A stretch of 64,000 nt of DNA from a virus (IMGVR_UViG_3300042863_001217), one strand, 5' to 3'. Shown: positions 14,802-50,963, numbered from the stretch's first letter. The notes: generated by a model from the sequence alone, not told the origin. Numbers and translations: made by a program.

Positions 14802-15536
14802 TTATATCCAAGACCACTCTACTCTAATGCCCTTATGTTTAATATGTATCTTATCTACATCAAAATGATTTGATCTACTTTGATTATTAAAAATAGTGTC
14901 AAGTGTAAATCCGTCTTTATTTAATATAGTTGGCACAAATCCTTCAGAATATCCATGTACACCATTTAGTAATAAATCTGTTATGTGACGTAGACTTTTA
15001 TTTGAGAATCTAACAATTGGAAAGAATGATCCAAATAATTCACCATTTTTATTGATTTGGTCACCATCACCTGGAAATCTATCAAACCATAATGTATTAC
15101 TGTATGTGTTAGCATCAATTTCGGGAATGTTAGGTTGACTAGTCACTCCTTTGTTCTTAAATATGTAATAAGAAATAAAATCAGTATTGTTATTTTCAAA
15201 TGCTTTAAAGAATTCTGACCAATTATCACATACTAAGTCATCATCCATAAACCAATACCAATCTTCATTGGGATTAAGCATATAATAATATGCCATTCTA
15301 AGATGTGCATAGAACCAAATAATATTTCTATTACCTTGTTGATTCCACCAATGTAATTTACTAACATCACTTCTAAAATTAAAAAGATCTCTTACTTTTT
15401 GTTCATCATATTCTATTCCAATAGGTGCTCTATCAGATAAAAATTCAAAGTCAAAATCTACAGTTTTCCAATACGATTCATATGATTTAAATGTATTAGC
15501 ACATGTACATACTATTGTTTTAGACATATTGTTCAA
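14802..15536 (-). CDS. Putative glycosyltransferase (DxD-like motif WFMDDDLV)
   Basis: Acidic DDD motif typical of GT-A fold enzymes. Context only. Confidence 0.3.
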   Translation of the reverse strand: MNNMSKTIVCTCANTFKSYESYWKTVDFDFEFLSDRAPIGIEYDEQKVRDLFNFRSDVSKLHWWNQQGNRNIIWFYAHLRMAYYYMLNPNEDWYWFMDDDLVCDNWSEFFKAFENNNTDFISYYIFKNKGVTSQPNIPEIDANTYSNTLWFDRFPGDGDQINKNGELFGSFFPIVRFSNKSLRHITDLLLNGVHGYSEGFVPTILNKDGFTLDTIFNNQSRSNHFDVDKIHIKHKGIRVEWSWI

Positions 15537-16341: not shown

Positions 16342-16342
16342 T

Positions 16343-16975
16343 TTAACAATTATGTAATTTATGTGTCAACATTTCATTTACACCAAATATTGTAGGCCAA
16401 CTATACTCTAGTGCCCATATTTGTGGATCGTTTCCATGTGCTCCTCCAGAAAATGAAGAAGTTGATATATTTTTTGCTATACTTTCCATTAGTTTTACGT
16501 AAAAATCTAATGATCTTTTCTTAATTTGATCTTTCTTTACAATACATTGCATACCACCTATAAACATAAATGGCAATTTATATTCAATTTCCATTTTTTC
16601 ACAGTAATCAATAGCTTGCTTAATACAACCATCATTATCTCTGATATAAGTTGGTCCAATTGGATAAAATGGTTTTGTAAAATCACAATCATTGATAAAT
16701 TCTACACAAGTTTCACAATCATGTTCGAATGGATTTCCTTGTAAGAATATTGTGTAATCAGCTAAATTGTACCAATTTGTTACAATATGATGTAGGTGTG
16801 TATGCGCATCTTTACCATAATTTAACAGATTTCTTTCAAATAAATGATTATCTGCTGCATTTTTATTGTAAATAGTTACTTTATACTTAAGTTTTTTTGT
16901 CCAAGATACATCTTCATTGTATTTAGCAACAACTGCTTCTATTGTCATAAAACTCTTTCTATTTTTGTACACCAA
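16343..16975 (-). CDS. Hypothetical protein
   Basis: 210-aa ORF in the glycan island. Confidence 0.35.
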   Translation of the reverse strand: MVYKNRKSFMTIEAVVAKYNEDVSWTKKLKYKVTIYNKNAADNHLFERNLLNYGKDAHTHLHHIVTNWYNLADYTIFLQGNPFEHDCETCVEFINDCDFTKPFYPIGPTYIRDNDGCIKQAIDYCEKMEIEYKLPFMFIGGMQCIVKKDQIKKRSLDFYVKLMESIAKNISTSSFSGGAHGNDPQIWALEYSWPTIFGVNEMLTHKLHNC

Positions 16976-24000: not shown

Positions 24001-24914
24001 CCACCTGCATCTGTACGAGTAACCTTAACATATACTTGAATAGCATGTGAATCTACTTCTTTAGTGAAGTGCATTAAAAATGATTGAATACCAGCAGATA
24101 CTACTGCAACACCTAATCCAACTGGAGTTATAAATTGAGTAACTAATACATCTGATTGCAACGGAGTTAAATCAGTAGTTACTATTTGTTGTACACTAGA
24201 TACTGGGATTGGTGAAATTTCATTAAGATCATTTGCACCGCCACCATTATTAACTACAGTAACTGATTCATTCATATAGAATATTTGACCAGTGCTATAA
24301 CCTGCTTCTCCTTGTAAACCATTAACTCCACTTGAACCTGAAGTTCCATCAATTCCTGATGTACCATTAGTACCACTTGTTCCATCAATTCCAGAAGTAC
24401 CATTAGTACCATCTAAACCGTTTAAACTAACTTCTACCCATGGATCATTACCATTAGTTGAAGATGGTGTATATAATTGTGGTAAAAATGTTGGAGGTCC
24501 ACCTATAACATTTGTGTATATTTGTGTACTATTAGGTTTTAAAAGACCTGCGCGAACCCATTGTGGTAACGCTTGCCATTCAGTATCACCTAAAACACCA
24601 TTATTGCCCCAATATCCTTTAGGTATTAAGACATAAAATTTATTTTCTTCAATGACATAAACTAGCATACCAACTGATCGAATACCCGTTGTATATCCAC
24701 CATCGTTTGAAACTGTAAAACCAATATGTGTAACTGGTGCAGGTGCTTCACCCCAAATAGGTAAGGCATTTCTTTCTTCAATTGTAAATACCTTTTGATA
24801 CCCACCCTTTACATGTTGTGCATGTACAATTCCTTCATAAGGACTTAATGATGAACTTGGCGAAATAAAATTACCAAAGGCGTATTGTGTTGAAACTGGT
24901 CTAGTAAATCCCAT
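21030..24914 (-). CDS. Collagen-like repeat protein (virion fibre candidate), 1294 aa
   Basis: Several hundred residues of uninterrupted G-X-Y triplets (GTNGTSGTNGSSG...), flanked by non-collagenous N- and C-terminal domains. Confidence 0.7.
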   Translation of the reverse strand: MGFTRPVSTQYAFGNFISPSSSLSPYEGIVHAQHVKGGYQKVFTIEERNALPIWGEAPAPVTHIGFTVSNDGGYTTGIRSVGMLVYVIEENKFYVLIPKGYWGNNGVLGDTEWQALPQWVRAGLLKPNSTQIYTNVIGGPPTFLPQLYTPSSTNGNDPWVEVSLNGLDGTNGTSGIDGTSGTNGTSGIDGTSGSSGVNGLQGEAGYSTGQIFYMNESVTVVNNGGGANDLNEISPIPVSSVQQIVTTDLTPLQSDVLVTQFITPVGLGVAVVSAGIQSFLMHFTKEVDSHAIQVYVKVTRTDAGGIPIAVWGTTTPTLIGWDTSTAIPVDVYQDLFLEQHYISPTDKVLVQIYAINDDNQNRTIKFYTEGVSNYSHIVSSLGATEGPAGSNGTSGTNGSNGSSGTNGSSGTNGSSGTNGSSGTNGTNGTSGVTGNPGTSGSSGTNGTNGSSGTNGTNGTNGSDGSSGTNGTNGTNGSDGTSGTNGSSGTNGTSGTNGTSGSNGTDGTSGSRGNDGSSGINGTSGMDGSHGTSGTNGTSGTNGNNGTSGFDGADGSSGTNGSSGTNGTSGTNGTSGAKGDTGTSGTNGSSGTNGTSGLNGSNGTSGANGTSGTNGSSGTNGTSGTNGSNGTSGTNGSSGTNGTSGTNGTSGTNGSSGTNGTNGSSGTNGTSGTNGSNGTSGINGTSGTNGTSGIDGRNGLDGTSGTDGSSGINGERGTSGTNGSSGTNGSSGTNGSSGTNGTSGTHGTNGTSGANGTSGTNGTSGTNGTSGTNGSSGRDGTNGTSGANGTSGTNGTSGTNGTSGTHGTNGTSGTNGTSGTNGTSGINGTSGTDGINGERGTSGTDGSSGRDGINGTSGANGSSGINGTSGSSGINGTSGTNGSSGTNGTSGLNGTSGTNGERGTSGTNGTNGTSGTNGTSGTNGTSGTNGSSGTHGTNGTSGTNGSSGTNGTSGANGTSGTNGSSGTNGTSGTNGERGTSGTNGSSGINGSNGTSGTNGTSGTNGTSGTHGTNGTSGTNGTSGTNGSSGTNGTSGTNGSSGRDGTSGSSGINGTSGTNGTSGTNGTSGTNGSSGINGTNGTSGTNGTSGLNGTSGTNGTSGKDGTSGSSGRDGTSGTNGTSGTHGTNGTSGTNGSSGTNGTNGSSGTNGTSGINGQPGQPGEAGIGSCYEHVSICATPRDEKITNQSLQKSFVLIPYTFALEGMILTGIESSYGVSDNTQEVRYTLWGVDATGTASVLLVWDHASNTKFAESIYNNVAAQLWDNKYVYVTGNQSDYDGVGFTVTAIFTNSNCTPK
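21434..23760 (-). repeat. Tandem 9-bp-unit DNA repeats encoding collagen G-X-Y triplets
   Basis: Low-complexity periodic DNA. Produces artefactual ORFs on the opposite strand. Confidence 0.7.
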
Positions 24915-24934: not shown

Positions 24935-26239
24935 TTATACTACGTTTAGTGTTAATGCACCAGATAGAGGTTGGTCAAATACTTCATATAAAGTGTATGC
25001 ATTTCCTAAATGTGTGAAATCTAATTTAGATACAAATGTAAATGGAATTCCATTCGCAGCATCTGCGAATTTAGCTGTCGTTACATAGTCAGTTGTACTA
25101 ACTGATTTTGGAATTGCAATGTAATATCTTTGTGAAGAAGCCACATTAGCCGCAAAATACAATGTACCGTTAGGTATTTCAGTATTATTTATAGCACTAA
25201 ATGTATCAAAATAAATTTGTTCTACATTATTAGCAGTTCCTTCATTCGCTAACATATCGACAAATACTAAATCAAAATTAGTTGTAGTTGTATTATCGTT
25301 TAAGTAATAATCAGAAGAAGGTGTAGTTAATGAATTAACTCCTGGATAACCTCCATTTCCGTTCCAGTGGAACCAGAATGTAGATGATCCTTCAGGAACT
25401 GGCGTTGCAGTCGGTTCTGGAATTGAAGTTGCAGTCGGTGCAGGAACTGGCGTTGCAGTCGGTTCTGGAATTGAAGTTGCAGTCGGTGCAGGAACTGGCG
25501 TTGCAGTCGGTGCAGGAATAGCTGTCGCTGTAGGTGCAGGAACTGGCGTTGCAGTCGGATCTGGAATTGCTGTCGCTGTAGGCGCAGGAACTTCAGTCGC
25601 TGTAGGATCTGGAACTGGCGTTGCAGTTGGGATCACTTCAGTCGCTGTAGGATCTGGAACTGGCGTTGCAGTCGGGATCACTTCAGTTGCTGTAGGTACA
25701 GGAACTTCAGTCGCTGTAGGATCTGGAACTGGCGTTGCAGTCGGGATCACTTCAGTTGCTGTAGGATCTGGAACTGGCGTTGCAGTTGGATCTGGTATAG
25801 CTGTTGCTGTAGGTGCAGGAACTGGCGTTGCAGTCGGGATCACTTCAGTTGCTGTAGGATCTGGAACTGGTGTTGCAGTCGGAATAATCGCAGTCGCAGT
25901 TGGCAAAATTGTTGCCGTAGGAACAGGAACTGGTGTTGCAGTAGGTGGTATAGGTGTAATATCAGTAACAAATAAAGTATTTGAAACGGTTTCACATAAA
26001 TTAGAGTCAATTATTTTAACTTTATATTGACCCGGTGCTAAACCACTATTACCCGTATTATCGGTTGCATTACCAAATGTAAACGTATTGGATACAATGT
26101 TATTGACAGGATTTTGAAATGTCGGATATGCATTGTTAGGTATCGGTTGATTTGTACCTGCGTTCAGTAAAGTATATTGGTAAGGTCCGACTCCTCCAAC
26201 TACTTGTACTGTAACTGTTCCATTATTAATGTTTGCCAT
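24935..26239 (-). CDS. Pro/Thr-repeat protein (PTATPVPDPTATEVI...) with globular N- and C-terminal domains
   Basis: About 170 aa of PT-rich tandem repeats. Confidence 0.55.
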   Translation of the reverse strand: MANINNGTVTVQVVGGVGPYQYTLLNAGTNQPIPNNAYPTFQNPVNNIVSNTFTFGNATDNTGNSGLAPGQYKVKIIDSNLCETVSNTLFVTDITPIPPTATPVPVPTATILPTATAIIPTATPVPDPTATEVIPTATPVPAPTATAIPDPTATPVPDPTATEVIPTATPVPDPTATEVPVPTATEVIPTATPVPDPTATEVIPTATPVPDPTATEVPAPTATAIPDPTATPVPAPTATAIPAPTATPVPAPTATSIPEPTATPVPAPTATSIPEPTATPVPEGSSTFWFHWNGNGGYPGVNSLTTPSSDYYLNDNTTTTNFDLVFVDMLANEGTANNVEQIYFDTFSAINNTEIPNGTLYFAANVASSQRYYIAIPKSVSTTDYVTTAKFADAANGIPFTFVSKLDFTHLGNAYTLYEVFDQPLSGALTLNVV

Positions 26240-26264
26240 TTGTTTATATTTTTATTTTAATTTT

Positions 26265-27944
26265 TTATCTAAAAGGTTCGCCTTCATATCGACATTCAAA
26301 GTTTGATGCACATTCTCCGCCCATCGGTAATGCATATACGCCTTCTGGATATGCCATTATAAAGTTATTTATGCTATCCCAATAATTAGGTTGCAATGTG
26401 CTACATATATTATATACAATACCTCGTGTTCCATTTATTTCAGCTGGTGCAGACATAAGTTCACTGAATAGTGTATTTTGTATTCCATTAAGATTATAAT
26501 TTAAACCGAAACCTTCTGTTTGTTCAGTTTCTGGTACGAATATGAAATGACAAAAACCTGTTTTACCTAAATCTTCAGGTGTTGGAGTAGGTCTTATAGC
26601 TTCTCCTCCACTACCACTATCTGGTGTAGATGTTGGTTCTATTGGTATCTCAGTTGCAATTGGTGCAGGAATTAGCGTTGCAGTTGGTGCAGGAACTGGT
26701 GTTGCAGTTGGAATAACTGGTGTTGCAGTCGGTGCAGGAATAGCTGTTGCAGTCGGTGCAGGAACTGGCGTTGCAGTCGGTGCAGGAACTGGTGTTGCAG
26801 TTGGTCTTCCCTCAATTGGATCTGGATCTGGTGTTCTAACACCTTCGCATCCAAATATATTATGTGTTAATATTCTCTCAAGACTTAAATCAGTACTCGG
26901 TGTTACACTTCTAAAAATGTAAACAGCACCTGTATTTAATTCACCTTCTATTGTAATTGTATCGTCAAGAGTTGGTGGTATAATAGTAAATCCAGCTTCA
27001 GTTAATGTTTCAGCTGTACATATATAATTAGGTTGTGCTTTTCCTTCAGGATTAAAGCAAACTATAAATTCATAATTTAATCGACCATCTATAATTGGTG
27101 TTGCGGTAGGTCTTATTGCTTCTGTTGCAGTAGGATCTGGAACTGGCGTTGCAGTTGGGATCACTTCAGTTGCAGTTGGATCTGGTAAAACTTCAACATC
27201 TGTTGGTGTTGGTGTAGGTCTAATAGATTCATCTAATGTTGCAGTCGGTGTAGGTCTAATAGATTCATCTAATGTTGCAGTAGGATCTGGTAAACCACTT
27301 CCTCCACTTCCTCCTCCACTACCACTATCTGGTGTAGATGTTGGTGTTATACCAGCACCTCCATCACCTGAACCTCCACCTGAACTAATTGCAGTTGCAG
27401 TTGGTGGAATTGGTGTTGCAGTTGGTGGAATTGGTGTTGCAGTCGGTGTTATACCTGAACCTCCACCACTTCCACTTCCACTGCTATATACAGTAGTTGG
27501 TATTGGTGTTGGATCTGGAATTTGCGTTGCATTTGTAGTTGATGCTAACGTAATAATAAATCCTCCACAATTATCGATTGCATCTGTTTTAGATGCAAAA
27601 TTAACATAAAAATCATTACAATCATATTGAGGCGTAATCCAAATATATTGACCTGAAGTATAACCAGCGGCTACATATCTGTCGTAATCAGTATCTAATG
27701 CACTAATTTTCCAAAATATTAATGATTTTTCTAATTCATTATCAGAAAGAGTTAAATTAGTATTCTGACCAAATATTCTCCAACCTGCCATAGTTTGTTG
27801 AGAATACAACAAATTATAGTCCATTTCAGAATGGGTTAGTGGTCTTCCTAAAGTATGCGGATGTAATGGAAACCATTTTCCATTAACCATGTTTCTATGA
27901 AGTCCGTGTATAAAACTATAATTTTCGATGTTACCGATATCCAT
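26265..27944 (-). CDS. Pro/Thr- and Gly/Ser-repeat protein, paralogous linker style
   Basis: PTATPIPPTATPIP, SGSGGGSG and PTATPVPAPTATAIP repeats. Confidence 0.55.
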   Translation of the reverse strand: MDIGNIENYSFIHGLHRNMVNGKWFPLHPHTLGRPLTHSEMDYNLLYSQQTMAGWRIFGQNTNLTLSDNELEKSLIFWKISALDTDYDRYVAAGYTSGQYIWITPQYDCNDFYVNFASKTDAIDNCGGFIITLASTTNATQIPDPTPIPTTVYSSGSGSGGGSGITPTATPIPPTATPIPPTATAISSGGGSGDGGAGITPTSTPDSGSGGGSGGSGLPDPTATLDESIRPTPTATLDESIRPTPTPTDVEVLPDPTATEVIPTATPVPDPTATEAIRPTATPIIDGRLNYEFIVCFNPEGKAQPNYICTAETLTEAGFTIIPPTLDDTITIEGELNTGAVYIFRSVTPSTDLSLERILTHNIFGCEGVRTPDPDPIEGRPTATPVPAPTATPVPAPTATAIPAPTATPVIPTATPVPAPTATLIPAPIATEIPIEPTSTPDSGSGGEAIRPTPTPEDLGKTGFCHFIFVPETEQTEGFGLNYNLNGIQNTLFSELMSAPAEINGTRGIVYNICSTLQPNYWDSINNFIMAYPEGVYALPMGGECASNFECRYEGEPFR

Positions 27945-41357: not shown

Positions 41358-42104
41358 TTAAATGTTTTTTAGATTTTCTACCATCCAATCCAATTCTACT
41401 TGACTAGCTGCATCTGAGATGGCATTATCAGGATCTGGATGTGTTTCAATAAATACTCCATCATACTCAAAAATACGTGCAGCTAAAGAATATTGCTTTG
41501 CAAGTTTTCTACTTCCACCTGTAATACCATCACCTGACATTTGAGTTGAGTGCGTACAATCAAAGATAACTTTATCTGCAAATTGTTTCATTACATCAAC
41601 TCCTCTGAAATCTACAATTAACCTATCAAAACCAAATTGAGTACCACGTTCAGTAATCCATACTTGACATGTTGGATTTACTTCTTTAATCTTGGTAACA
41701 GCATGTTTCATTGCATCAGCAGATAACCACTGACCCTTCTTAACGTTGATAATATTAAAGTGTTTTGCACATTCTATAAGAAGATCTGTTTGTCTACATA
41801 AGAATGCTGGAATTTGAATCACATCTACTACATCTGATAATGGTAATGCTTGATCTGCTGTGTGAATATCTGTAACGATTTTAAGACCTGGAAATTTAGC
41901 TTTGACATTTCGCATAATCTCGATACCTTCGTCTAAACCCGGACCTCGATTAGAATGAATTGAAGTTCGATTGGCTTTATCAAAGCTACCTTTAAGATAC
42001 CAATCTTTTCCTTGCATTATAGGATATAGTGCATTTGCTACTTCTGTGAAGTTGTCCTCGCTTTCAATGCTACAAGGACCTAAAATATATGTGTAATTTT
42101 CCAT
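41358..42104 (-). CDS. kdsA: 3-deoxy-8-phosphooctulonate (KDO-8-phosphate) synthase
   Basis: Motifs GPCSIES, KGSFDKANRTSIHSNRGPGL, DVVDVIQIPAFLCRQTDLL and IFDCTHS align closely with bacterial KdsA/DAHP-synthase family proteins. Confidence 0.85.
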   Translation of the reverse strand: MENYTYILGPCSIESEDNFTEVANALYPIMQGKDWYLKGSFDKANRTSIHSNRGPGLDEGIEIMRNVKAKFPGLKIVTDIHTADQALPLSDVVDVIQIPAFLCRQTDLLIECAKHFNIINVKKGQWLSADAMKHAVTKIKEVNPTCQVWITERGTQFGFDRLIVDFRGVDVMKQFADKVIFDCTHSTQMSGDGITGGSRKLAKQYSLAARIFEYDGVFIETHPDPDNAISDAASQVELDWMVENLKNI

Positions 42105-42306
42105 TTATAATTTATATGAAAATGGTAGAAATAGTTTATTTTTTGCGTAACATCATTTCAATGATTGGTCCATGAGATTGGTAAACCGCTAAATGTTGAC
42201 CATTTAGCCTTTCACCTTTCTTAAGAGATTCTACCATTGATTTGAAAAAATGCATTGGAACCTCACCTTTGTCTACATAATGTTGCCACTCTTGAGGATT
42301 CATCAA

Positions 42307-43848
42307 TTACTTAATTACTTTTATTCCCATATTAGCATTAAATGGGTTAGGCATACTTCCTTTTTGTTCAAATTGAAAGTTAGCTGATTTAAATGGTATT
42401 GTTTTAAATATAAGAGTTCCTTTGTTTACAGAAACATCTAAATATAATTGTTTTACATCTGTTACCATTCTTCCAAATTTAGATAATTCATTAGAATACG
42501 TATTAGTTAATAATGTAGCTATTTCAACCATTAAAGCATAAAATACTATTCCAATTTTGTTTTTACCCATTGTAGGATATGACTTTATCATCTCATTTAA
42601 TTTAGCTTTATTCCATTGCATTTTACTCAAATCCCATAATTTAGATATGAAATTGCTAAATTCATCTACATTAGAATCGTATAATATATCTAGAAAACTA
42701 ACAACAGCATCTTGAGTTAGCATCGAGGGATCTAATTTAGATTCTGAACAAAGAAGCCAATATCCTGAATTTGAATGATCTTTTATATTAACATTACACA
42801 AATTCATTATATTGTCATAAGTACCACTTCTAGCTAATTTAGGAGGATTAACCCACTGCTCTACAACATTAGTAAGGAAATCTGATTCTAGTGCAGTTTC
42901 TGCTTGTATTAAAGAATCTTGTTTGGCTTGGTATATTTTTTGAATTATAGTATCTCCACTCGGTGTTCCTCCTTTTCCGCCTTTTGAAGAAATAGAATAT
43001 CCGCTAAAATAAAAATCTACTAATTTTTCATTAGATGATTTTGGATAAGATAATCCCACACCATATGATTGAAGTATATTAAAAAACATAAAGCCTCCTA
43101 ATATTTCTCCGTAATCATTTTGGAAATGTTGGATTGAAATAGGATCAATACCCTCAAATATATTATTGTCAACACTATAAGATATGTCATGTACTCCAGC
43201 TGCTAAATAAGCATCAAAATCTTTAAATTTATTTTTATTTGATGAATTATTCATAATAGATTCAGTTACTGTAATAAAACATTTTTTATAGTTTTCTGGT
43301 AAACTGCTATTAGATATAGCCGGAGAGACAACTGCAAATAAACTTTCAGCTGATTGATATATGTTTTTTGTTATACCTAGATTATCAGGTGTAAGATCTT
43401 TTCTACCAACAACACCCTGCTCTCCTTTTTTATTAACTTTAAATCTATTGGTAATTGTTATAAAGTCTCCTTTTTTATAATCTTTACCTAAAGCATCTGA
43501 TACTTTAGTATTGAAAATTATTGTATATCCTGCGAAATCACTAGAAACAATTCCTTGTTGTTTAAATTCTATACTATAAGACGATGGATCAATACCACCT
43601 ACTTCTTTAAGAAATTCTATAATTTTAGTTTCTGCCGTTCCGTCATTTGCGCCGAAATTTGCTCTTAACACTTCACCTGTTCCACTTATTCTACTGGAAA
43701 CACCAGCAAAATCTTTAGAATTCATAAACTTTTTAAAACCTTCTAGCCAAAACTCTTCAATTGCTTTTTTAGTTGGTTGTTTTGATTCATGAATAGCTTT
43801 ATCCATTGCTATTTGAAAATTATTTCTAATGTCTTTAAATGTACTCAT
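42307..43848 (-). CDS. Hypothetical protein, 513 aa
   Basis: Long ORF with no recognisable motif. Confidence 0.5.
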   Translation of the reverse strand: MSTFKDIRNNFQIAMDKAIHESKQPTKKAIEEFWLEGFKKFMNSKDFAGVSSRISGTGEVLRANFGANDGTAETKIIEFLKEVGGIDPSSYSIEFKQQGIVSSDFAGYTIIFNTKVSDALGKDYKKGDFITITNRFKVNKKGEQGVVGRKDLTPDNLGITKNIYQSAESLFAVVSPAISNSSLPENYKKCFITVTESIMNNSSNKNKFKDFDAYLAAGVHDISYSVDNNIFEGIDPISIQHFQNDYGEILGGFMFFNILQSYGVGLSYPKSSNEKLVDFYFSGYSISSKGGKGGTPSGDTIIQKIYQAKQDSLIQAETALESDFLTNVVEQWVNPPKLARSGTYDNIMNLCNVNIKDHSNSGYWLLCSESKLDPSMLTQDAVVSFLDILYDSNVDEFSNFISKLWDLSKMQWNKAKLNEMIKSYPTMGKNKIGIVFYALMVEIATLLTNTYSNELSKFGRMVTDVKQLYLDVSVNKGTLIFKTIPFKSANFQFEQKGSMPNPFNANMGIKVIK

Positions 43849-43850
43849 AT

Positions 43851-44450
43851 TTATTTGTATGCTCTAATTGTTGATATTTGTATTCCTTCATGTTCTTGTT
43901 CTAATGATTTTACTAATACTAAATTAGCCTCATCATCATCGTAAAATTGTAGGTCACTGTAACCCATATCGATCAATTCTCTAAACGCTTGTTTTTTACG
44001 ATCCGATATACTACCTTTGAATTTATGTACTGAATCATTCACTGCAAAAATAAGATCTTTGTCGATTCTAAATCCAACATGTTCTCTTAACCATCTATAA
44101 ATCATTTCTCTATCATCTCTTGCTGTAACAATTCCAACTGCGATGCGTGATTTATAAGCTTCTTTAAATATGTCTAAGTAATGTTCAATCATTTGACCAG
44201 CTTTCATAATCTCTAATGATTTAAATTCATCAAAGTTTAATTCATGATCTGCATGTTTTTCATAACTATTAAATTCTTCTGGAGTCAGTGAATAACATTC
44301 TCCTGTTTTCTTATTGCAAACCTTTATTTTTGCTGATGAAATTACTAAAGTATCGTCAAGATCAAACACAAGAATCTTGGAACCATGATATGGTTTTCCA
44401 GCTCTGTTTACCTCATTTAGGTATTCTGTGTAATTTTTAACGTGTTTCAT
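43851..44450 (-). CDS. HAD-superfamily phosphatase-like protein with degenerate leader (MKHVKNYTEYLNE...)
   Basis: HAD motif I, ILVFDLDDTLV. Confidence 0.5.
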   Translation of the reverse strand: MKHVKNYTEYLNEVNRAGKPYHGSKILVFDLDDTLVISSAKIKVCNKKTGECYSLTPEEFNSYEKHADHELNFDEFKSLEIMKAGQMIEHYLDIFKEAYKSRIAVGIVTARDDREMIYRWLREHVGFRIDKDLIFAVNDSVHKFKGSISDRKKQAFRELIDMGYSDLQFYDDDEANLVLVKSLEQEHEGIQISTIRAYK

Positions 44451-44480
44451 CTTAGCTTATACTTAAAAATCTAATAATGT

Positions 44481-44744
44481 TTATTTATTAGATTCTATTT
44501 TTATTTTCAATGCAGTAAGTTTTATATCAATTTTTGATATTTCTGCTTGCATGGAAAGTTTCTGTGCAGTTAATGCTAACATTTCAGATTTTAATGGATC
44601 CTCTTCGTTTCTCATTGCTTTTGCAGTTTCAGCAGCTTTAGTTTTAATCTCGTTTCTTTTAGAATCTAATTCTCTAACTTTAAGATTTAGGTCAGCTACT
44701 TTTTGAGCATCCTCAAATAATTGGAAAGTTTTCAGGTGTTTCAT
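44481..44744 (-). CDS. Small leader-family protein (MKHLKTFQLFED...)
   Basis: 87 aa, coiled-coil. Confidence 0.4.
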   Translation of the reverse strand: MKHLKTFQLFEDAQKVADLNLKVRELDSKRNEIKTKAAETAKAMRNEEDPLKSEMLALTAQKLSMQAEISKIDIKLTALKIKIESNK

Positions 44745-45036
44745 CTTTTGGTATTTCTTTTTCTATTTCTAGAGTCCATAGTCTATTATTAGGTACTACG
44801 AATTTTCTTTCATGTCCAAAAACATAAAAAGTTGTTTTGTATATATTTTGTCTAACTATTCTAGCTTTCTTTGCGCCTTTAATATAAACTATATCATCTA
44901 CATTAAAATCATTGCCCCATAAAAACTGCATACCAATAACAAGATTAGCAATCATGTCTTTGAATGTAAATGAAATTATAGCTACTGCTGTCACCCAACC
45001 CCATTCTGATATGTATTGTCCTATTAACTCTTTCAT
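44713..45036 (-). CDS. Small membrane protein
   Basis: Hydrophobic N-terminus. Confidence 0.35.
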   Translation of the reverse strand: MKELIGQYISEWGWVTAVAIISFTFKDMIANLVIGMQFLWGNDFNVDDIVYIKGAKKARIVRQNIYKTTFYVFGHERKFVVPNNRLWTLEIEKEIPKDETPENFPII

Positions 45037-45521
45037 ATTAGTCCCATTGCACTTAAATTTTGTAGAACCACTTGTTGACTTAACATTATAACTTGTGAAG
45101 CTTCTATTTTGTCCATAAATTTGGCATTATCAATTTCTTCACGCTGTAATTGCCCTTTAGGTACCACTAGATCTTTAAGTCCTATTTTAGACAGGTCATC
45201 TATTTCAACTATAAAATAATAAATAACTTTATTATACTTATACTTTCTAGAAGTTAAAACAAATGTACGTTCAATTTTACTTATTAAAGATTTAGGAACT
45301 TTAATACCGAACTCTTCATAAGTTTCTCTGATAGCAGCATCTAAATGTGATTCACCTTCTTCGATGCCACCTTTAGATATACCATAACCAGTTCCTTCTT
45401 TTCTACCTCTAGATTGACCTAACAAAATTTTACCATCAAACACAATCGCAAGACCAGCTGAATATCTAGTGTCTAGATATTTCTCGTTGATAAATTGATC
45501 ATATTTTTTTAGGTGTTTCAT
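45033..45521 (-). CDS. Leader-family Nudix hydrolase (MKHLKKYDQFINEK...)
   Basis: Nudix box GGIEEGESHLDAAIRETYEEFGI. Confidence 0.65.
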   Translation of the reverse strand: MKHLKKYDQFINEKYLDTRYSAGLAIVFDGKILLGQSRGRKEGTGYGISKGGIEEGESHLDAAIRETYEEFGIKVPKSLISKIERTFVLTSRKYKYNKVIYYFIVEIDDLSKIGLKDLVVPKGQLQREEIDNAKFMDKIEASQVIMLSQQVVLQNLSAMGLI

Positions 45522-45811
45522 TATGCCGCAGTTTCGTCATCTAATCTTTTAATCTCTTCTTGTATTTCAAATAATCTCCATTCGAAATCAAATAATTCTT
45601 GACGACTTAATTTATTTTGTTTAAATGACTTTTTAGCTCTGCTGTATTCTTCAGTCAATCGCTTAAGTACTTTCTTTAGTTCACTCTTTGTTTGATTAGC
45701 GCCAATCGAATGTTGAGTATTACTCTTGTCTATTTTTACCTCATTCGTTTTTTCAACAACGATCATCTCGAAGTCTGAAAATAGCATTAGAAATTTTTCT
45801 GTAGTGCTCAT
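45521..45811 (-). CDS. Hypothetical coiled-coil protein
   Basis: 96-aa ORF. Confidence 0.4.
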   Translation of the reverse strand: MSTTEKFLMLFSDFEMIVVEKTNEVKIDKSNTQHSIGANQTKSELKKVLKRLTEEYSRAKKSFKQNKLSRQELFDFEWRLFEIQEEIKRLDDETAA

Positions 45812-45884
45812 GATGTTTTTTATGTTTTTAATTTAAACACTTATAACTTATATATCGAGTTTATATTTTTCTTTAACTCTATCA

Positions 45885-46490
45885 CTAATTGATTTTATAT
45901 TCAATCCAGTCATGTCCAGTTGAGTTAATGTTTGGAAAATAAAATTCAAATTTATTATTATTAACTCTAATTATTTTTGTAAATCCTATTGGTACTAATG
46001 CTCCAGTACTTAACCAATTTTGAGGTTTATCTAGAAAATGTACTCTAATTTCTATAGTTACATTTGAAAATACTTTTGATAAATCCTTTTCAAAATGTTC
46101 TAGTTCTTTCCATGGTCCTCTATTTAATGATTCATGTTGTAATGCACAATTTAAATAAGAGAATGTATTTCGTAAATTAGTTATATTACATGTAAATGCA
46201 CCAGCAGGTGCCATATGACCTTTGTCCCATATATTATCAACATAGTCATCATCGTCACTTGTTACAACACCTGTCCATTTCTTAAATGACATACCATCTC
46301 TTTCTTCATCACCAGTTGGGCATTGAACTTTATATTTAATAACCAAAGGTTGTTGAAATCTTTGAGAATATTCAATTTCAAATATACTCGTTTTGATTTT
46401 AACATTTGCAAGACCTGTTTGTGCATTTGCACTTGTAATTAACAATAATGTTAGGAACGTTATTGCAATTATGTTTTTTATTTGTTTCAT
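45885..46490 (-). CDS. Secreted DNA/RNA non-specific endonuclease-like protein
   Basis: N-terminal signal peptide. Active-site-like motif WDKGHMAPAG (D-R/K-G-H-x-x-P). Confidence 0.5.
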   Translation of the reverse strand: MKQIKNIIAITFLTLLLITSANAQTGLANVKIKTSIFEIEYSQRFQQPLVIKYKVQCPTGDEERDGMSFKKWTGVVTSDDDDYVDNIWDKGHMAPAGAFTCNITNLRNTFSYLNCALQHESLNRGPWKELEHFEKDLSKVFSNVTIEIRVHFLDKPQNWLSTGALVPIGFTKIIRVNNNKFEFYFPNINSTGHDWIEYKIN

Positions 46491-47374
46491 TTAATTGATT
46501 TTATCCAGGATAATAGGTTTGTTTCTGGTTTCCAACCTAATTGCCTAGTGATTTTTGTAATATCTGCAGCGGAACGCATAGGTTCCTCTCTTTTTTCTAC
46601 ATGTTTGATTTCACCACCAAATGCCTCAGCCACTTCAATAACTTGAGTTTCTGTACCAGATCCAACATTATAAATTGGCATAGTGGTCTTAAATTCGGCC
46701 TGACTACTCATTATAATAGCATTTACCACATCTTTAACATAAATCCAATCTCTAGTTTGTGTGCCATCACCAGTTACGGTAATAGGTTGATAAGATTCAT
46801 ATTGTTGTAAGAATATGGGCACTGCACTTCGGTATCCACCAGTAGCCCTTTGACCTTCACCAAAGACATTAAAAAATCTTAGAGCTGTACACTTAAACTG
46901 AGGTTTATTATAACTCATCATCATGTGTTCCATTTCCAATTTAAATTCGGCATAAGGACTCATCGGATTAGGTGTATCACTCTCTTTTAATGGCACTTGT
47001 TCTGAATCACCATAGACCGCAGCAGTGGATGCAGCTACCATTGAAGTAGCTCCCATTTCATAAGCCCAACTCATAACTCTTCTACTTGCAACACATATGC
47101 CATTCCAATATTTCATTGGTTGTTCTATGCTTTCAGGTACACTAATCGGTGCAGCTAAATGAAATAGAGTATCAAATTTATAAGTTGGCAATTTACTACT
47201 AATAATATCAGTAGCTTCAATAATTAAATTTGGATGTGGTTCTAAATTGTCCATGTCACCAGTACTAAAATTATCAAGTACAATTACTGACCATCCATTG
47301 TTTAGTAATTCTTTAACCAGATATGAACCAATAAAACCAGCTCCACCTGTAACTACAGCTTTTCTATTCTCCAT
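46487..47374 (-). CDS. NAD-dependent epimerase/dehydratase (UDP-sugar 4-epimerase-like)
   Basis: VVTGGAGFIGSYLV Rossmann motif. Confidence 0.7.
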   Translation of the reverse strand: MENRKAVVTGGAGFIGSYLVKELLNNGWSVIVLDNFSTGDMDNLEPHPNLIIEATDIISSKLPTYKFDTLFHLAAPISVPESIEQPMKYWNGICVASRRVMSWAYEMGATSMVAASTAAVYGDSEQVPLKESDTPNPMSPYAEFKLEMEHMMMSYNKPQFKCTALRFFNVFGEGQRATGGYRSAVPIFLQQYESYQPITVTGDGTQTRDWIYVKDVVNAIIMSSQAEFKTTMPIYNVGSGTETQVIEVAEAFGGEIKHVEKREEPMRSAADITKITRQLGWKPETNLLSWIKSIK

Positions 47375-50300
47375 ATAATTCTTTATTTATGACAGCAATA
47401 ACTCTGTCTGATCCAATGGTTTTAGTACACTCAAATTGACGATGTGTTCCTTTCCATAAAGGGCACCAATTCCAGTCACCTTTGTCAAATGTATCCCAAC
47501 CCCAACAACCATGACATACTTTATGATTGTTAATATAGATAGCTGATTCAAATTCCACATAAGGATCTGTAAAGCCACTAATAACAATTACTTTGGCTCC
47601 AAGTGCCCATGCGAACCAAGATAAGCCAGAGGAAATTCCAATAAACAGTTCGGCTTCATTAATAGCTCCTGCTACTAATGCCAACTCTTCTGGCAATTGT
47701 TTAACTCCTTTTAATTGACTACCTTCTTTACTAGCATGGTACACACTAATCTCTTTACTATTACACCAGTCAATTGTTTCTTGCCATCCAGTAGGATTAT
47801 TCCAGTACTTAGCTTGCGCTGTACTTTGGGTAGCGATTACAATAGAGCGTTTTTTTGCAGTAGACTTGATCAAGAATTCGCGCGCTAGTTGAGGTCTTTG
47901 TTCTACGTACTCAGTACCTAAGCGATCTGAGGCGATTTTCCCCAGAGGTATAGTCCTCCAGTCGTATTTATGTTCTGAACGTTTCCATGGTTCTTCCATG
48001 GTGTAAAAGACTCCGATAGTGATTAGCGCACCCTTGTTAGGCACTGACCAGTCAATGATGTCTATGCCCTTTGAGCTATACCATGCTTTGTCAAACAGCC
48101 AGGGTTTGTGTGTCTTCACATATAATCGTGATAGCTTATGTGTGTCTATCACTGTGTGCAGCTGTCCCATGAAGCTCAATGTGTCTCCAAGTGATGAACT
48201 TGCCATTTCCACTGTAAGTTCCTGGCCTTCAAGGCTCAGACGTTCTGAATGAACTAGTTGGTCATTACTGTAAACCTTAACAGTCCACTGAGTCCACCAA
48301 TTTCTTGCGGGCTTGTACCAGTTTCCTGCCTGTAAGTCTGTTGCGTTCCATACTAGATCTTCATGATCGTAGAACTCGGCCCGTAATTGAGTGCCTCCAG
48401 TTTCCTTGATCGTTAATTTCGGACCATCTTGATATTCTAATGTCCATTCAGGTTGTTTGTATATCGGAGCTTTTTGAGGGCCTCGTGGGGTAGTTAAACA
48501 TTGTTGGTACCATTGGATATGCTGATCAGTGAAACGTTTTAGATCATCAGCTGGGATATTTTTTCCTTGTGCCTCGGATGATTTGAGTGTTTTGATTAAT
48601 TGGTCAACATTTTCATGGAGATCGTTTGTGAATGGGACAATGTAAGGTGTAAACATGTCTTTATATTGCTCTAAGTCCCTAGAGAATGTGATTAGACCAT
48701 GACCGATTGCTTCACGTAGTGCGAGTGGACTACACTCCCATGTTGAGTTAAACATAAATGCGTCACATGCACTCATAAAGACGTCAACATCGTTTCTCTC
48801 ACCCCATACAGTAACATTACTTGGCAACTTCTTCATAATTGGTCCCCAATATTGTTCGAAGTTTTCTGCTTGATTACCTACGAAATGAAATTGATACTTT
48901 CCAGGAAATCTAGCTTCAACTATTCTGGCAATATCAACACCTTCTGCTTGATTCTTACCTTGTGTCCAAAGACCTACATTTAATATATGTGTCTTATCAA
49001 TGGCTAAACCTAATTTAGCTCTTGATTTTGCTTTATCAAACGCTGAAGGTTTTTGATTTAATATAGGATATTCTACAACTGGTTTTAAACCATCTCTATT
49101 TCCGAAAGTTTCTAAATGATATGGAGTACACATCATGTACATATCTGGATCATTAATCTTATCGTTTGGATCAAACCAAATATTGTGAGATGTTTCTACA
49201 ATTTTCCATTGCTTATTGTAAAGCCATTCCATTGCACTTTGATCAATTTTATTAAATCCATCAAATGATTCTGGACATTCATCAATATGAATAATATCTG
49301 GGTTTATTTCTAAAATCTTTGCCTTTAATCTTTCACCTCGTTCGGTAATGTCTATTGAATTTAAGAATCCTAATGAATGAAATCTAGCACCTAATTTTTC
49401 TATAAGTTGATCTCGTTGCACATTGTAAATATCACTATATTGTGTATACTCTACTAAGTGAATTTCATATTCTTTTACATCTAACATAGCTTCGACTCTC
49501 TTTAAGACAAATTGAGGCATGCCTCCTGTACTTAAATGTGGTGCTAAGAATAGTAATTTAGTTTTGTTTGTCATTTCTTTGGTATTAGGTTTCATATAGA
49601 CATTGTCTACTAATAAGTCATTATACAAATCTATAACTGCATCGAATGTTTTATCTACTGTAGGATGACACTCGAATGTTGGTTTATATTCTAAACAATA
49701 TAATTGTGGCGGAACAGCTTGAATAGTTCCATGTTCAATAATATTGTATTTCATATTACTGGAACAGAAAATATCGCAACTTCCACCAATATATTTGTAT
49801 TTATAATCTTGTGAACCCTTTCTATAAGGTGCTCTTAATTTTGGATCTATTGAACTACCTAATTGAATAATATTTACGTCAGTAGTTCCTGCAATGTGCA
49901 ATAAACCAGAATCCATAGTTACTATAGCTCTAGCTTTATGATTCATCATCCATCTTAATTCAGCTGGATCATTTGTTGCATCATTAAGTAAGTTAACTCC
50001 AAGCTTTATATTCAAATCCATTACGGGTTTGTCTATTGAGAATGTACCGAATTCATGAGAATCTCGGCCAACCGCAACCACTGGAATACCTCTATCATTT
50101 AATTTATCAACAAGTTCTTGCCATTTATCTTGATCCCATGTTCTAGTTGCCCAGGTATAAGTTGGGTGTATTATAACATAGTTTTCAAATCCAAGATTTC
50201 TTTCACGTTCAATATACAAATCCATTTCCATTTCATCTTGAGTTAAACTAAACCCTAATGAAACTGCATGAAATTGTCTAATATCCATATTAGAAGATCT

Positions 50301-50570
50301 GAATTCTACTTGTTCACCTCTTAGATCATATGCTTTGCCAACGATTGGCATAAATGTACGATAAACCTTTATGTCGGAGTCATATCTAAGAGGGTCATCC
50401 AACTTTAATGCTTTTGACACAAGTGGATGACCCTCAAATAAGAAAGGTTTACTAGAAAATACTATAAGTTGTGACTCACACGCTTTAGCTAACTTCCTAA
50501 GTGTAGGAATTGCTGCTATCGTGTCACCTAATGCAGGTGTATCTATACATATCGCAACTTGTTTTGACAT
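47364..50570 (-). CDS. Multidomain glycosyltransferase with N- and C-terminal GT9 (heptosyltransferase-like) domains
   Basis: N-terminus ICIDTPALGDTIAAIP. Two ...MDSGLLHIAG... / ...GISSGLSWFAWALGAKVIVISGFTDP... motifs resemble the RfaC/RfaF family. Confidence 0.55.
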   Translation of the reverse strand: MSKQVAICIDTPALGDTIAAIPTLRKLAKACESQLIVFSSKPFLFEGHPLVSKALKLDDPLRYDSDIKVYRTFMPIVGKAYDLRGEQVEFRSSNMDIRQFHAVSLGFSLTQDEMEMDLYIERERNLGFENYVIIHPTYTWATRTWDQDKWQELVDKLNDRGIPVVAVGRDSHEFGTFSIDKPVMDLNIKLGVNLLNDATNDPAELRWMMNHKARAIVTMDSGLLHIAGTTDVNIIQLGSSIDPKLRAPYRKGSQDYKYKYIGGSCDIFCSSNMKYNIIEHGTIQAVPPQLYCLEYKPTFECHPTVDKTFDAVIDLYNDLLVDNVYMKPNTKEMTNKTKLLFLAPHLSTGGMPQFVLKRVEAMLDVKEYEIHLVEYTQYSDIYNVQRDQLIEKLGARFHSLGFLNSIDITERGERLKAKILEINPDIIHIDECPESFDGFNKIDQSAMEWLYNKQWKIVETSHNIWFDPNDKINDPDMYMMCTPYHLETFGNRDGLKPVVEYPILNQKPSAFDKAKSRAKLGLAIDKTHILNVGLWTQGKNQAEGVDIARIVEARFPGKYQFHFVGNQAENFEQYWGPIMKKLPSNVTVWGERNDVDVFMSACDAFMFNSTWECSPLALREAIGHGLITFSRDLEQYKDMFTPYIVPFTNDLHENVDQLIKTLKSSEAQGKNIPADDLKRFTDQHIQWYQQCLTTPRGPQKAPIYKQPEWTLEYQDGPKLTIKETGGTQLRAEFYDHEDLVWNATDLQAGNWYKPARNWWTQWTVKVYSNDQLVHSERLSLEGQELTVEMASSSLGDTLSFMGQLHTVIDTHKLSRLYVKTHKPWLFDKAWYSSKGIDIIDWSVPNKGALITIGVFYTMEEPWKRSEHKYDWRTIPLGKIASDRLGTEYVEQRPQLAREFLIKSTAKKRSIVIATQSTAQAKYWNNPTGWQETIDWCNSKEISVYHASKEGSQLKGVKQLPEELALVAGAINEAELFIGISSGLSWFAWALGAKVIVISGFTDPYVEFESAIYINNHKVCHGCWGWDTFDKGDWNWCPLWKGTHRQFECTKTIGSDRVIAVINKELYGE

Positions 50571-50573
50571 GTA

Positions 50574-50963
50574 TTAGTATGATTCATAGGATTTCTCTTC
50601 TACAAATAAAGATCCCGTTAACAAATTGATTTTTTTCTTGACATCAGATCTGTCATCATTTGTGTAATACACTGATCTTGCCAATTCAACGAAGTCTTCA
50701 CCAAATGATTCTCGACGTTCGCATTCACGAATCATATCTTCAATATTCCAAAGGGTTTTATTTACATTAAATAAATCTTTATGTAATACATCTAATTCGC
50801 GATAGTCATCAGCTTCATTGTAGATGTGATCTACGACAGATTTAAGTGAATCATACTCTTTTTGAATGTTTGCTAATTTTTCAGGATCAGAAATCTCTTT
50901 AAGTTTGATTTCTAAAATAGTAAATTTATCAATAATCTCTCCGTTTGATACCTCGATTTTCAT
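50574..50963 (-). CDS. Hypothetical protein
   Basis: 129-aa ORF. Confidence 0.4.
   Translation of the reverse strand: MKIEVSNGEIIDKFTILEIKLKEISDPEKLANIQKEYDSLKSVVDHIYNEADDYRELDVLHKDLFNVNKTLWNIEDMIRECERRESFGEDFVELARSVYYTNDDRSDVKKKINLLTGSLFVEEKSYESY

Follow-up and report, generated by a model that had tools for sequence, protein, structure and literature searches.

A 64,000-nucleotide stretch of viral DNA (IMGVR_UViG_3300042863_001217; 'the window' refers throughout to this whole stretch) encodes a 1068-residue protein that is constructed from three glycosyltransferase (GT) modules, the last of which is related to the protein O-heptosyltransferases TibC and AAH of the bacterial autotransporter heptosyltransferase (BAHT) family. 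We assign a probability of roughly one half to the reading that this protein acts as a soluble, cytoplasmic protein glycosyltransferase, O-glycosylating the collagen-like fibres of the phage that encodes it. Fibre glycosylation appears to be the most likely function because the closest characterised relative of the protein modifies proteins, and because its viral relatives adjoin giant genes for Ser/Thr-rich, collagen-like products. The proposal draws on analogy with two bacterial systems: TibC itself, which modifies Ser but not Thr in Asn/Ser/Gly/Thr-rich repeats within the cytoplasm, and which belongs to a family whose genes characteristically adjoin that of their substrate (PMC4358343); and C. 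difficile SgtA, which is encoded beside bclA3 and O-glycosylates Thr in the collagen-like repeats of BclA3 (PMC7157674). On sequence evidence, the feature as a whole would be best described as a viral system for glycosylating structural proteins, with a TibC-like enzyme at its centre.

The architecture of the protein is apparent both from domain searches and from an AlphaFold2 (AF2) model (mean pLDDT 81.9), in which three GT-B modules are joined by low-confidence linkers; no signal peptide or transmembrane segment is visible in the 1068-residue chain. Pfam GT9 is matched in two stretches, the N-terminal one carrying the motifs ALGDTIAAIP and MDSGLLHIAG and the C-terminal one SLGDTLSFMG and ISSGLSWFAWA, and the two GT9-like domains and motifs described in a first-pass annotation of the same DNA are thus indeed present. 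All three genes named there (kdsA, the large GT and an epimerase) were confirmed, each on the minus strand. The central domain that was said there to separate them also exists, but is itself a GT4 glycosyltransferase, so that the protein possesses three GT modules. The accompanying remark that two GT9 domains in a single polypeptide are unusual holds for characterised proteins and for bacterial genomes, but not for uncultured large phages, in which the arrangement is common.

The C-terminal module (module 3) aligns with the TibC structure 4rap over TibC residues 15-385 (E 3e-31), and a Foldseek comparison matches it to the whole TibC chain with TM values of 0.78-0.80 (normalised to TibC). The AF2 model places beta-strands within residues 708-789, corresponding to an N-terminal barrel that is followed by the GT-B fold. 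Against the TibC/AAH model TIGR04414, the entire protein scores 208 bits (of which 30 are contributed by the N-terminal module) and module 3 alone 182.3 bits, relative to a cut-off of 200; because the domain by itself falls just under that NCBIfam equivalog cut-off, it is classified here as a BAHT relative rather than a proven equivalent. Module 3 scores at most 26 bits on LPS (lipopolysaccharide) heptosyltransferase models, and the best score obtained with the WaaC, WaaF and WaaQ models is 49.8 bits, relative to equivalog cut-offs of 134.6-569. Relatives of the TibC-like domain at E <1e-30 number 468 among 1.84 billion representatives, and the best of these are mostly multidomain proteins.

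Structural studies of TibC, an iron-containing enzyme that hyperglycosylates adhesins of the autotransporter type, have assigned roles to a catalytic Asp, to a Thr and a Lys that bind the beta-phosphate, to a Trp that contacts heptose O4, and to the Cys residues of an iron finger (PMC4358343). The first four of these positions (TibC Asp110, Thr226, Lys230 and Trp305) correspond to D796, T917, K921 and W985 of the phage protein and are conserved in 45/45 family members, as are C1019, C1022, C1036 and C1048, which align with TibC Cys339, 342, 358 and 370; the Cys4 motif of a putative (1Fe-0S) iron finger is accordingly present in module 3. At the position of TibC P300, a determinant of stereoselectivity, module 3 possesses a Ser, as does AAH. 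The retention of four of five contacts would suggest a heptose donor, but the adenine contact is lost and no gene of a heptose pathway was found among the ORFs scanned. No autotransporter partner of the BAHT-like module is present; the large neighbour in its relatives is a collagen-like gene.

The N-terminal module (module 1) obtains nearly the same score from the WaaC model (31 bits) as from the TibC model (30 bits). Its D16, within the GDT box, and its residues C265, C269, C292 and C301 are invariant in 29/29 homologues, a set that includes stand-alone 310-residue genes of other phages, and this second Cys4 group sits at a place equivalent to that of the iron finger in the C-terminal module. 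Because four invariant Cys residues thus occupy a corresponding position in each, both GT9 modules look BAHT-derived. The intervening module 2 is the best conserved part of the protein, and its assignment to GT4 is based on a PF00534 score of 32.7 bits (cut-off 26.4), on an EX7E-type motif (E612-x7-E620, of which E612 is invariant) and on a GT-B fold for which Foldseek returned BshA, HepE, MshA and PglA (E 1e-13 to 1e-10).

Proteins of this kind are widely distributed among uncultured viruses. More than 1000 metagenomic homologues were recovered, some of which share the same architecture (1064-1070 residues, 75-96% identity) and others of which are extended by FkbM, GT8 or GT34 domains; the core conserved across them consists of the GT4 and TibC-like units. 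That fusion was found at at least 547 IMG/VR loci, and on only 7 contigs of metagenome-assembled genomes (MAGs) among 185,579 bacterial and archaeal species, four of those seven being binned as Bacteroidota; the fusion is almost virus-specific. The enzyme family, abundant in large aquatic phages, is essentially unstudied, and searches of the literature for TibC-like enzymes in phages or for glycosylated collagen-like phage fibres returned nothing relevant.

The genomic company of the fusion was surveyed in 83 related IMG/VR loci, in which open reading frames (ORFs) were called and then searched with the proteins of the window, and which were reduced to 54 upon dereplication. A collagen-like ORF is found in 45/83 of these loci; among the 54, its distance from the GT4-BAHT gene is at most 2 kb in 24 loci and at most 5 kb in 31, and 34 carry it anywhere in the locus, mostly as the immediate convergent neighbour of the GT but in other arrangements as well. 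For a gene with one or a few copies in a 200-kb genome, adjacency within 2 kb would arise by chance in roughly 5-10% of cases, a figure that is our own estimate rather than a measured background. The GTs of the collagen-bearing loci are 42-93% identical to one another (median 55%), and all of the associated collagen-like ORFs are of one type, composed of Gly-X-Y triplets (as many as 881) with Thr or Ser at X, Ser or Asn at Y, and Pro close to 0%; in repeats of that type, each chain offers hydroxyl groups by the hundred as acceptors. A GT9N-like gene or domain is present in 57/83 loci, FkbM is fused or adjacent to GT4-BAHT in 34/83, and a GT60 enzyme is encoded within 10 kb in 19/83; genes for GT60, stand-alone GT9N, HtrL-like and FkbM proteins all cluster with GT4-BAHT in relatives of the window, and SDR (short-chain dehydrogenase/reductase) genes likewise recur in related loci. 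These modules lie together in a sister lineage, while in the lineage of the window the triple GT, an epimerase and DUF6165 are separated by 22 kb from the fibre array. In one lineage-A relative that displays GT synteny like that of the window, a collagen-like ORF of at least 1752 residues is located elsewhere on the same contig. GT genes are therefore linked to a structural gene, as in virus-encoded virion-protein glycosylation, both in the GT60 array of the window and in 24 of the 54 relatives.

That array is headed by two mucin-like proteins, followed in order of transcription by the collagen-like protein, the 906-residue protein, the GT60-type enzyme, DUF3431, a weak GT-A-like protein, p244, the HtrL/YibB-like protein and a second SDR, with all of the genes co-directional, separated by small gaps, and with the fibre gene and the GT60 array contiguous (Table 1). 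The fibre protein contains approximately 274 consecutive Gly-X-Y triplets; Thr (63%) and Ser (18%) predominate at X, Asn and Ser (42% each) at Y, and no Pro is found. The GT60-type protein is, by homology, a second candidate polypeptide-initiating enzyme, and the 434- and 559-residue Thr/Pro proteins are further candidate acceptors for O-glycosylation. Long Thr/Pro repeats of the form P-T-A-T-P-V-P-(D/A) were noted in three large proteins around the collagen-like gene. A 790-residue ORF on the plus strand opposite the collagen gene (21424-23796; Pro/Val/Glu-rich) is almost certainly a repeat artefact rather than a gene. Elsewhere in the window (40551-40982), a 143-residue protein was noted in which a hydrophobic helix at the N-terminus is accompanied by a Lys/Ala/Pro-rich stretch and long (Gly-Ser)n tracts, with a weak Serglycin match; found only in the near-identical relative among the 83 loci, it could represent another acceptor for O-glycosylation.

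Table 1. Features of the window that bear on the glycosyltransferase, the fibre array and kdsA (positions in window coordinates)
Feature	Coordinates	Strand	Basis or remark
FkbM-type methyltransferase	109..912	minus	Pfam PF05050
SDR293, HtrL/YibB-like, p244, p273 (weak Nucleotid_trans) and DUF3431 proteins	13123..16975	minus	Pfam, NCBIfam; four with sugar-related or weak matches
GT60-type glycosyltransferase, 415 residues	16945..18192	minus	PF11397 E 1.6e-74; phrog_24687 E 1e-174
906-residue protein: VWA-like N-terminus, Thr/Pro-rich linkers, C-terminal Hint/intein-like domain (CLLEGT...ITHN)	18296..21016	minus	weak Pfam matches
Collagen-like fibre protein, 1294 residues, proposed acceptor	21030..24914	minus	Pfam Collagen E 9e-118; PHROG tail-fibre and collagen-like families
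Two proteins (434 and 559 residues) with P-T-A-T-P-V-P mucin-like repeats, directly upstream of the collagen-like gene	24935..27944	minus	SprB repeat match
kdsA, metal-type KDO-8-phosphate synthase, 248 residues	41358..42104	minus	Pfam, NCBIfam, PDB alignment
NUDIX hydrolase	45033..45521	minus	Pfam NUDIX; 59% identical to the NUDIX overlapping kdsA in L088
DNA/RNA non-specific endonuclease, signal-peptide-like N-terminus	45885-46490		start overlaps epimerase stop by 4 nt
SDR nucleotide-sugar epimerase, 295 residues	46487..47374	minus	Pfam Epimerase 173 bits; phrog_540 nucleotide-sugar epimerase
Three-module glycosyltransferase, 1068 residues	47364..50570	minus	ORF, Pfam/NCBIfam domains, AF2 model, fold matches
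Module 3 (residues 701-1068), TibC/AAH-like (BAHT-like): beta-barrel, GT9 catalytic domain, Cys4 iron-finger motif	47364..48470	minus	
Module 2 (residues 336-700), GT4, retaining type by family	48471..49565	minus	PF00534, PF13692
Module 1 (residues 1-335), GT9 with Cys4 finger, without beta-barrel	49566..50570	minus	Pfam GT9
DUF6165 protein, 129 residues, four-helix bundle	50574..50963	minus	Pfam 58 bits

Starting from what is observed (the domain identities, the conserved catalytic residues, the gene order and the co-location with collagen-like genes in relatives), we infer an acceptor, donor sugars, an order of action and a biological benefit, as follows. Modification would take place after translation of the fibre and before virion assembly. 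The TibC/AAH-like module would place the first sugar on Ser, and possibly on Thr, of the (Gly-Thr/Ser-Ser/Asn)n fibre, and that sugar would be a heptose should the module share the donor of TibC; the second Cys4-finger GT9 and the GT4 module might then extend or diversify the glycan, using UDP-sugars, some of which would come from the translationally coupled 4-epimerase. The GT60 enzyme and the sugar genes beside the fibre gene would act upon the same set of Ser/Thr-rich fibres, GT60 on Thr. The result would be a densely O-glycosylated fibre, in which the glycan might stabilise a proline-free helix, shield the fibre or tune adsorption, while kdsA would separately raise the synthesis of KDO (3-deoxy-D-manno-octulosonate)-8-phosphate in an infected Gram-negative host. 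Collagens that bear glycosylated Thr include Riftia cuticle collagen and BclA, and by analogy with these, the lack of proline may be offset by dense glycosylation. A broader formulation, which we regard as tentative and as rather improbable in full, is that a virus-specific, BAHT-derived, multi-module family hyper-O-glycosylates the proline-free collagen-like fibres of jumbo phages, with the glycan replacing proline and hydroxyproline and forming a variable coat for adsorption or protection. If true, a protein O-heptosylation-type system would be documented for the first time in a virus, as well as for the first time outside autotransporters. Should the main reading, fibre glycosylation, be right, TibC-type protein glycosylation would reach beyond bacterial adhesins, the folding of proline-free collagen-like repeats would become understandable, and a hypervariable glyco-fibre module, probably shaping the host range of Bacteroidota phages, would have been recognised.

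Several observations weigh against fibre glycosylation by the three-module protein. GT9 and GT4 enzymes also act upon lipid-linked or polysaccharide acceptors. The gap between the GT and the collagen-like gene in the window is 22 kb, and direct adjacency is found only in the sister lineage, whose GT is approximately 40% identical; shared ancestry could explain part of the synteny within that lineage. In a weak reverse test, which started from GTS/GTN repeats and took in 80 listed loci with short flanking sequence, a BAHT-like gene was found in 6 and any GT of the module in 12, and (GTS/GTN) fibres are evidently common without an adjacent BAHT. The TibC-like module on its own remains under the TIGR04414 cut-off (182 against 200). 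TibC Arg286 contacts adenine N1 and was proposed as the basis of ADP specificity, and the TibC thumb (Phe265/Val266) builds a dodecameric ring (PMC4358343); the equivalent of Arg286 is Val in 39/45 family members and Thr or Ile in the remainder, and the beta-hairpin thumb is shorter by about 11 residues, with TibC Val266 falling in a gap in all 45. Finally, no ADP-heptose pathway gene was found in the domain scans, which covered approximately 47 of the 68 window ORFs of at least 100 residues (Pfam) together with the called genes in the 10 kb to the right; the other window ORFs, about 20 in number, are mostly of 100-150 residues.

The epimerase gene shares 11 nt with the 3' end of the GT gene and lies directly downstream of it in the direction of transcription, rather than directly upstream as first annotated. 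Its product carries GGAGFIGS (the GxxGxxG motif for NAD) and Y-AEF-K (the catalytic Tyr-x3-Lys), scores 175 bits on the GalE model (cut-off 262), and matches UDP-Glc/GlcNAc 4-epimerases as well as UDP-GlcA decarboxylases, the best PDB matches being 6dnt, 6wj9/6wjb, 4zrm and UXS; it resembles an extended SDR of the UDP-hexose/HexNAc 4-epimerase type. An identity as HldD was ruled out both by its score on TIGR02197 (115.7 bits, cut-off 274.6) and by those PDB neighbours; the second SDR (13123-14004) reaches 63.3 bits on the same model. The epimerase adjoins the GT in lineage-A relatives, in one of which (GT 44% identical) genes for GlmS, UDP-glucose dehydrogenase and two methyltransferases are also found beside the GT. 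On the other side, the DUF6165 gene comes to within 3 nt of the GT start codon and is retained beside or near the GT in 21/83 related loci, across both lineages; its best 120 homologues are 69-98% identical and display many invariant polar residues. A fold search with its AF2 model (pLDDT 88) gave no informative match, and a literature search for DUF6165 found nothing. An amidase gene is located two genes upstream of DUF6165, a position that is kept in lineage-A relatives. A homologue of the non-specific nuclease remains near the GT in the distant relatives L005 and L013, and a 107-residue protein (44713-45036), whose sole match is MS_channel_2nd, the beta-domain of mechanosensitive channels, has the same neighbours in distant relatives.

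The identification of kdsA made in the first-pass annotation is borne out, since the gene product exceeds the NF003543 equivalog cut-off (288 bits, cut-off 242) and retains the ligands seen in the Aquifex enzyme. It also matches Pfam DAHP_synth_1 (PF00793) with 174.5 bits and TIGR01362 with 272 bits (under the cut-off of 314), and its best PDB match, Aquifex KDO8PS (1fwn), aligns from end to end (E 2e-64). In that alignment C11, H185, E220 and D231 occupy the positions of the metal ligands, which we take from the Aquifex structures to be Cys11, His185, Glu222 and Asp233, and the KANRS motif reads KANRT; the enzyme is predicted to be intact and of the metal-dependent (Cys11) class. Homologues that are 79-99% identical, and always of about 248 residues, occur on many marine contigs of up to 255 kb; kdsA has no PHROG family and is rare in cultured phages, Synechococcus phage S-SCSM2R being the clearest case.

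The kdsA gene lies 5.3 kb from the GT gene, with nine genes between them, and was found near the GT in only one of the 83 IMG/VR loci, namely the near-identical one; outside the closest relatives the two are genomically unlinked. An 81%-identical kdsA resides in a different neighbourhood in another Bacteroidota-type phage (L088/L089), and this difference, together with high conservation across marine contigs, identifies kdsA as a mobile auxiliary gene of these phages that is separate from the GT; its product may be used for host LPS or for some glycan. The pairing of kdsA with a NUDIX gene, overlapping in L088, is at a distance in the window. The order in L088/L089 (10001-19429) reads ribonucleotide reductase, kdsA, NUDIX, 4,6-dehydratase-like SDR, PglD-like acetyltransferase, DegT aminotransferase, GT2, Hc1, HAD phosphatase, an APH/choline-kinase-like protein, nucleotidyltransferase, a 420-residue protein of unknown type and an epimerase, and constitutes a more complete sugar-activation cluster (PglF/D/E-like) than that of the window. 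No kdsB, kdsC, kdsD or waaA/Kdo transferase gene was found among the scanned ORFs of the window or in the 10 kb to its right; a 199-residue HAD-like protein that was considered as KdsC was rejected, since its match is to phrog_415, a polynucleotide-kinase phosphatase, and since lineages that lack kdsA retain it. Viral kdsA genes were known previously from S-SCSM2R, where kdsA is accompanied by kdsB (PMC12801897), and from a Tara environmental viral genome (PMC5332604), and this part of the window adds little to what has already been reported in viruses.

The region had initially been interpreted as LPS inner-core-type sugar chemistry, and the corresponding function would be remodelling of the host envelope, in which the GT9 modules add heptose and the GT4 module a hexose to LPS core or capsule precursors while kdsA boosts KDO, so that the surface of the infected cell is altered or maintained, for example in superinfection exclusion. 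Phage 'LPS genes' are routinely read in this manner (PMC5332604, PMC12801897), and such a role would accommodate the Pfam GT9 hits with their weak WaaC/WaaF/WaaQ matches, the intact and conserved kdsA, and the presence in the window of an HtrL/YibB-like gene, from a family known in the E. coli waa region. However, the LPS heptosyltransferase models yield no more than 50 bits (cut-offs 135-569) where the TibC model yields 182-208, with module 3 alone at 182 and its LPS scores at 26 or less; the Cys4 fingers and beta-barrel are features of BAHT enzymes; the epimerase is unlike HldD; kdsA does not co-occur with the GT beyond close relatives; and neither kdsB, kdsC or kdsD nor waaA or export genes were found in the scanned ORFs. 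The family is, moreover, virus-specific and tracks collagen-like structural genes, and no integrase or lysogeny gene was seen in the window, seroconversion being mainly a trait of temperate phages. These findings lend the inner-core interpretation little support, and envelope remodelling is considered unlikely. An acceptor that is a protein other than the collagen fibre is about equally doubtful; candidates would include the mucin-like proteins, the 143-residue (Gly-Ser)n membrane protein encoded beside kdsA, capsid or tail proteins, and host proteins that are displayed on the surface or secreted by the type IX system (T9SS). The BAHT and GT60 homologies point to polypeptides as acceptors, PTAT-rich proteins flank the fibre gene, and the (GS)n protein, with its Serglycin-type match, is encoded in the same region as kdsA; in addition, the BAHT-like protein of phage Mel-JY01 adjoins a 'structural protein' that is not collagen-like, and the GT60 and GT9 genes of phage XacN1 adjoin that of a 3313-residue protein with TP-rich linkers. 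The (GS)n protein and a 1192-residue acidic protein are, however, found only in the near-identical relative, and the neighbour that recurs across divergent loci is the (G-T/S-S/N)n gene.

As for the suggestion, also made in the first-pass annotation, that a KDO-containing glycan is built on the virion, a virion glycan is indeed the direction in which the evidence points. A single pathway in which kdsA, the epimerase and the triple GT place KDO in a fibre glycan would fit the location of all three within 9.2 kb on one strand, and would recall the kdsA of L088/L089, whose surroundings, a nucleotide-sugar/GT2 cluster, also encode a HAD phosphatase and a nucleotidyltransferase; the giant virus CroV also carries KDO genes. 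It is nevertheless quite improbable: kdsA and the GT are set apart by nine unrelated genes, kdsA is missing from 82/83 GT loci, CMP-KDO synthetase and KDO-8-P phosphatase were not found among the scanned ORFs, the HAD-like gene corresponds to phrog_415 and persists without kdsA, and to our knowledge GT9, GT4 and GT60 are not Kdo-transferase families in CAZy. Highly improbable, finally, is DNA hypermodification, in which the GTs would glycosylate hydroxymethylated bases and thereby evade restriction. That is a common role of phage GT-B enzymes, one that has been discussed for the core GTs of 'moraphages' (PMC12619734), and a secreted-type nuclease gene is translationally coupled downstream; yet no hydroxymethylase or base-modification gene was seen in the scanned window ORFs, the nearest characterised homologues of two of the modules act on proteins, and the association with collagen genes would be left unexplained.

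Comparison with characterised systems further delimits what is familiar and what is distinctive in the proposed fibre glycosylation. The C-terminal 368 residues cover the whole TibC/AAH protomer (PDB 4rap, 4rb4; PMC4358343), sharing with it the barrel, the Asp base, the Thr/Lys/Trp residues and the Cys4 group, as well as a soluble, cytoplasmic appearance and, in relatives, a position beside the gene for a repetitive Ser-rich protein. In contrast to TibC and AAH, the phage module is fused behind two other GT modules, is phage-encoded and lacks an autotransporter, has Val in place of Arg286, a shortened thumb and a domain score under the equivalog cut-off, and has a collagen-like repeat as its proposed acceptor in place of a beta-helix passenger. 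The SgtA-BclA3 system of C. difficile (PMC7157674) similarly pairs a cytoplasmic GT with an adjacent collagen-like gene and coats a surface filament with O-glycans on Thr/Ser, but SgtA is a GT-A/TPR protein rather than a GT9/GT4/GT60 enzyme, and its repeats are Gly-Pro-Thr in a bacterial, spore-related setting, as opposed to proline-free and viral. The WaaC, WaaF and WaaQ enzymes have in common with the phage protein the GT-B fold, the Pfam GT9 signature and the Asp and basic-residue motifs, and differ from it in that the phage scores are far under their cut-offs, in its extra Cys4 fingers and beta-barrel, and in the lack of waa-type context.

O-glycosylated collagen-like fibres are also found in the exosporium of B. 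anthracis, in the form of BclA. Glycosylation of virions by viral enzymes is established for Mimivirus, which possesses collagen-like proteins and fibril glycans, and for the capsid glycans of chloroviruses. GT60 enzymes are polypeptide GlcNAc-transferases, exemplified by Dictyostelium Gnt1, which acts on Skp1 hydroxyproline, and by the mucin Thr alpha-GlcNAc-transferase of T. cruzi; the 415-residue protein matches their family (PF11397) and is encoded two genes from a Ser/Thr-rich fibre gene, and differs in being phage-encoded. Glycosylation of mycobacteriophage capsids and tail tubes (Freeman et al. 2023, as cited in PMC12619734) provides a further case in which, as in Mimivirus and chloroviruses, a virus modifies its structural proteins with GTs and sugar-nucleotide enzymes that it encodes itself, although the enzyme families and acceptors of all three are unrelated to those considered here, and no BAHT-like enzyme or (G-T/S-S/N)n fibre is described for them in the literature searched. 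As to kdsA, the enzyme of S-SCSM2R (PMC12801897) is likewise an intact KDO-8-P synthase of a large marine virus, approximately 42% identical, and differs from that of the window, which is of the metal-dependent Cys11 type, has a distant NUDIX partner and is without kdsB in the scanned ORFs. While phage 'LPS genes' are usually read as tools directed at the host surface, the relatives and gene company of the three-module protein point to decoration of the phage's own fibres.

Cultured carriers are available for parts of the module. Microcystis phage Mel-JY01 encodes a 1226-residue 'FkbM' protein with a BAHT-like C-terminus, and homologues of the GT60 enzyme are found in the Xanthomonas and Stenotrophomonas jumbo phages XacN1, Xoo-sp13, CM1 and RAS14, of which XacN1 might serve to study the GT60 part experimentally. 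In XacN1 (L090; record 203370-235596), a GT60 homologue that is 46% identical, a carbamoyltransferase gene and a GT9 gene are located within 10 kb of the gene for the 3313-residue protein. That giant product (ORF325) was considered as a collagen-like partner of GT60 and rejected, its C-terminal 1054 residues containing Thr/Pro linkers but no Gly-X-Y repeats.

The window belongs to a metagenomic contig of 260,917 bp (ENA ERZ27272104 k141_203066), of which it occupies approximately 174.8-238.8 kb by our own coordinate arithmetic. A nucleotide search against 50,697 phage records (INPHARED) returned zero matches to the window, and the phage is therefore absent from that cultured-phage collection. 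Domains of Bacteroidota type (a SprB repeat in the window; CHU_C and Por_Secre_tail in relatives), together with the binning of four of the seven bacterial MAG copies as Bacteroidota, fit an origin from a jumbo phage of marine Bacteroidota. A position near the 'moraphages', for which histone-like proteins have been mentioned (PMC12619734), is plausible: the traits shared with them would be a predicted Flavobacteriia host, a histone-like gene and several core GTs. A histone H1-like Hc1 gene of 57 residues was noted at approximately 59192-59362 of the window and in L001/L099, and the same family is present in L088.

The G+C content of the window is approximately 31%, one tRNA is present, and from 9 to 64 kb every gene is on the minus strand and tightly packed. 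A scan for promoters and terminators gave counts equal to the shuffled expectation. The first 9000 positions contain a plus-strand gene block of 38-39% G+C (relative to about 31% elsewhere in the window), which includes a KaiC/DnaB-like ATPase (7311-8453) and which may be a different module or of different origin. Two separate peptidoglycan hydrolases were noted, at 36153-36740 and 51228-52193: a glucosaminidase and an amidase with a peptidoglycan-binding domain, respectively. The 1192-residue acidic protein (36940-40518) has no family match and displays three repeats of about 38 residues (EGNAFGAARAKAI..EFEFEGETYKVED) near its C-terminus. To the right of the window (L099 1-9500; contig 238.8-248.8 kb), genes of the NAD-salvage type encode NAMPT/NAPRTase, a phosphoribosyltransferase and a nucleoside deoxyribosyltransferase-like protein, and the same interval also contains a small glycosyltransferase (Gly_transf_sug) of the DXD type.

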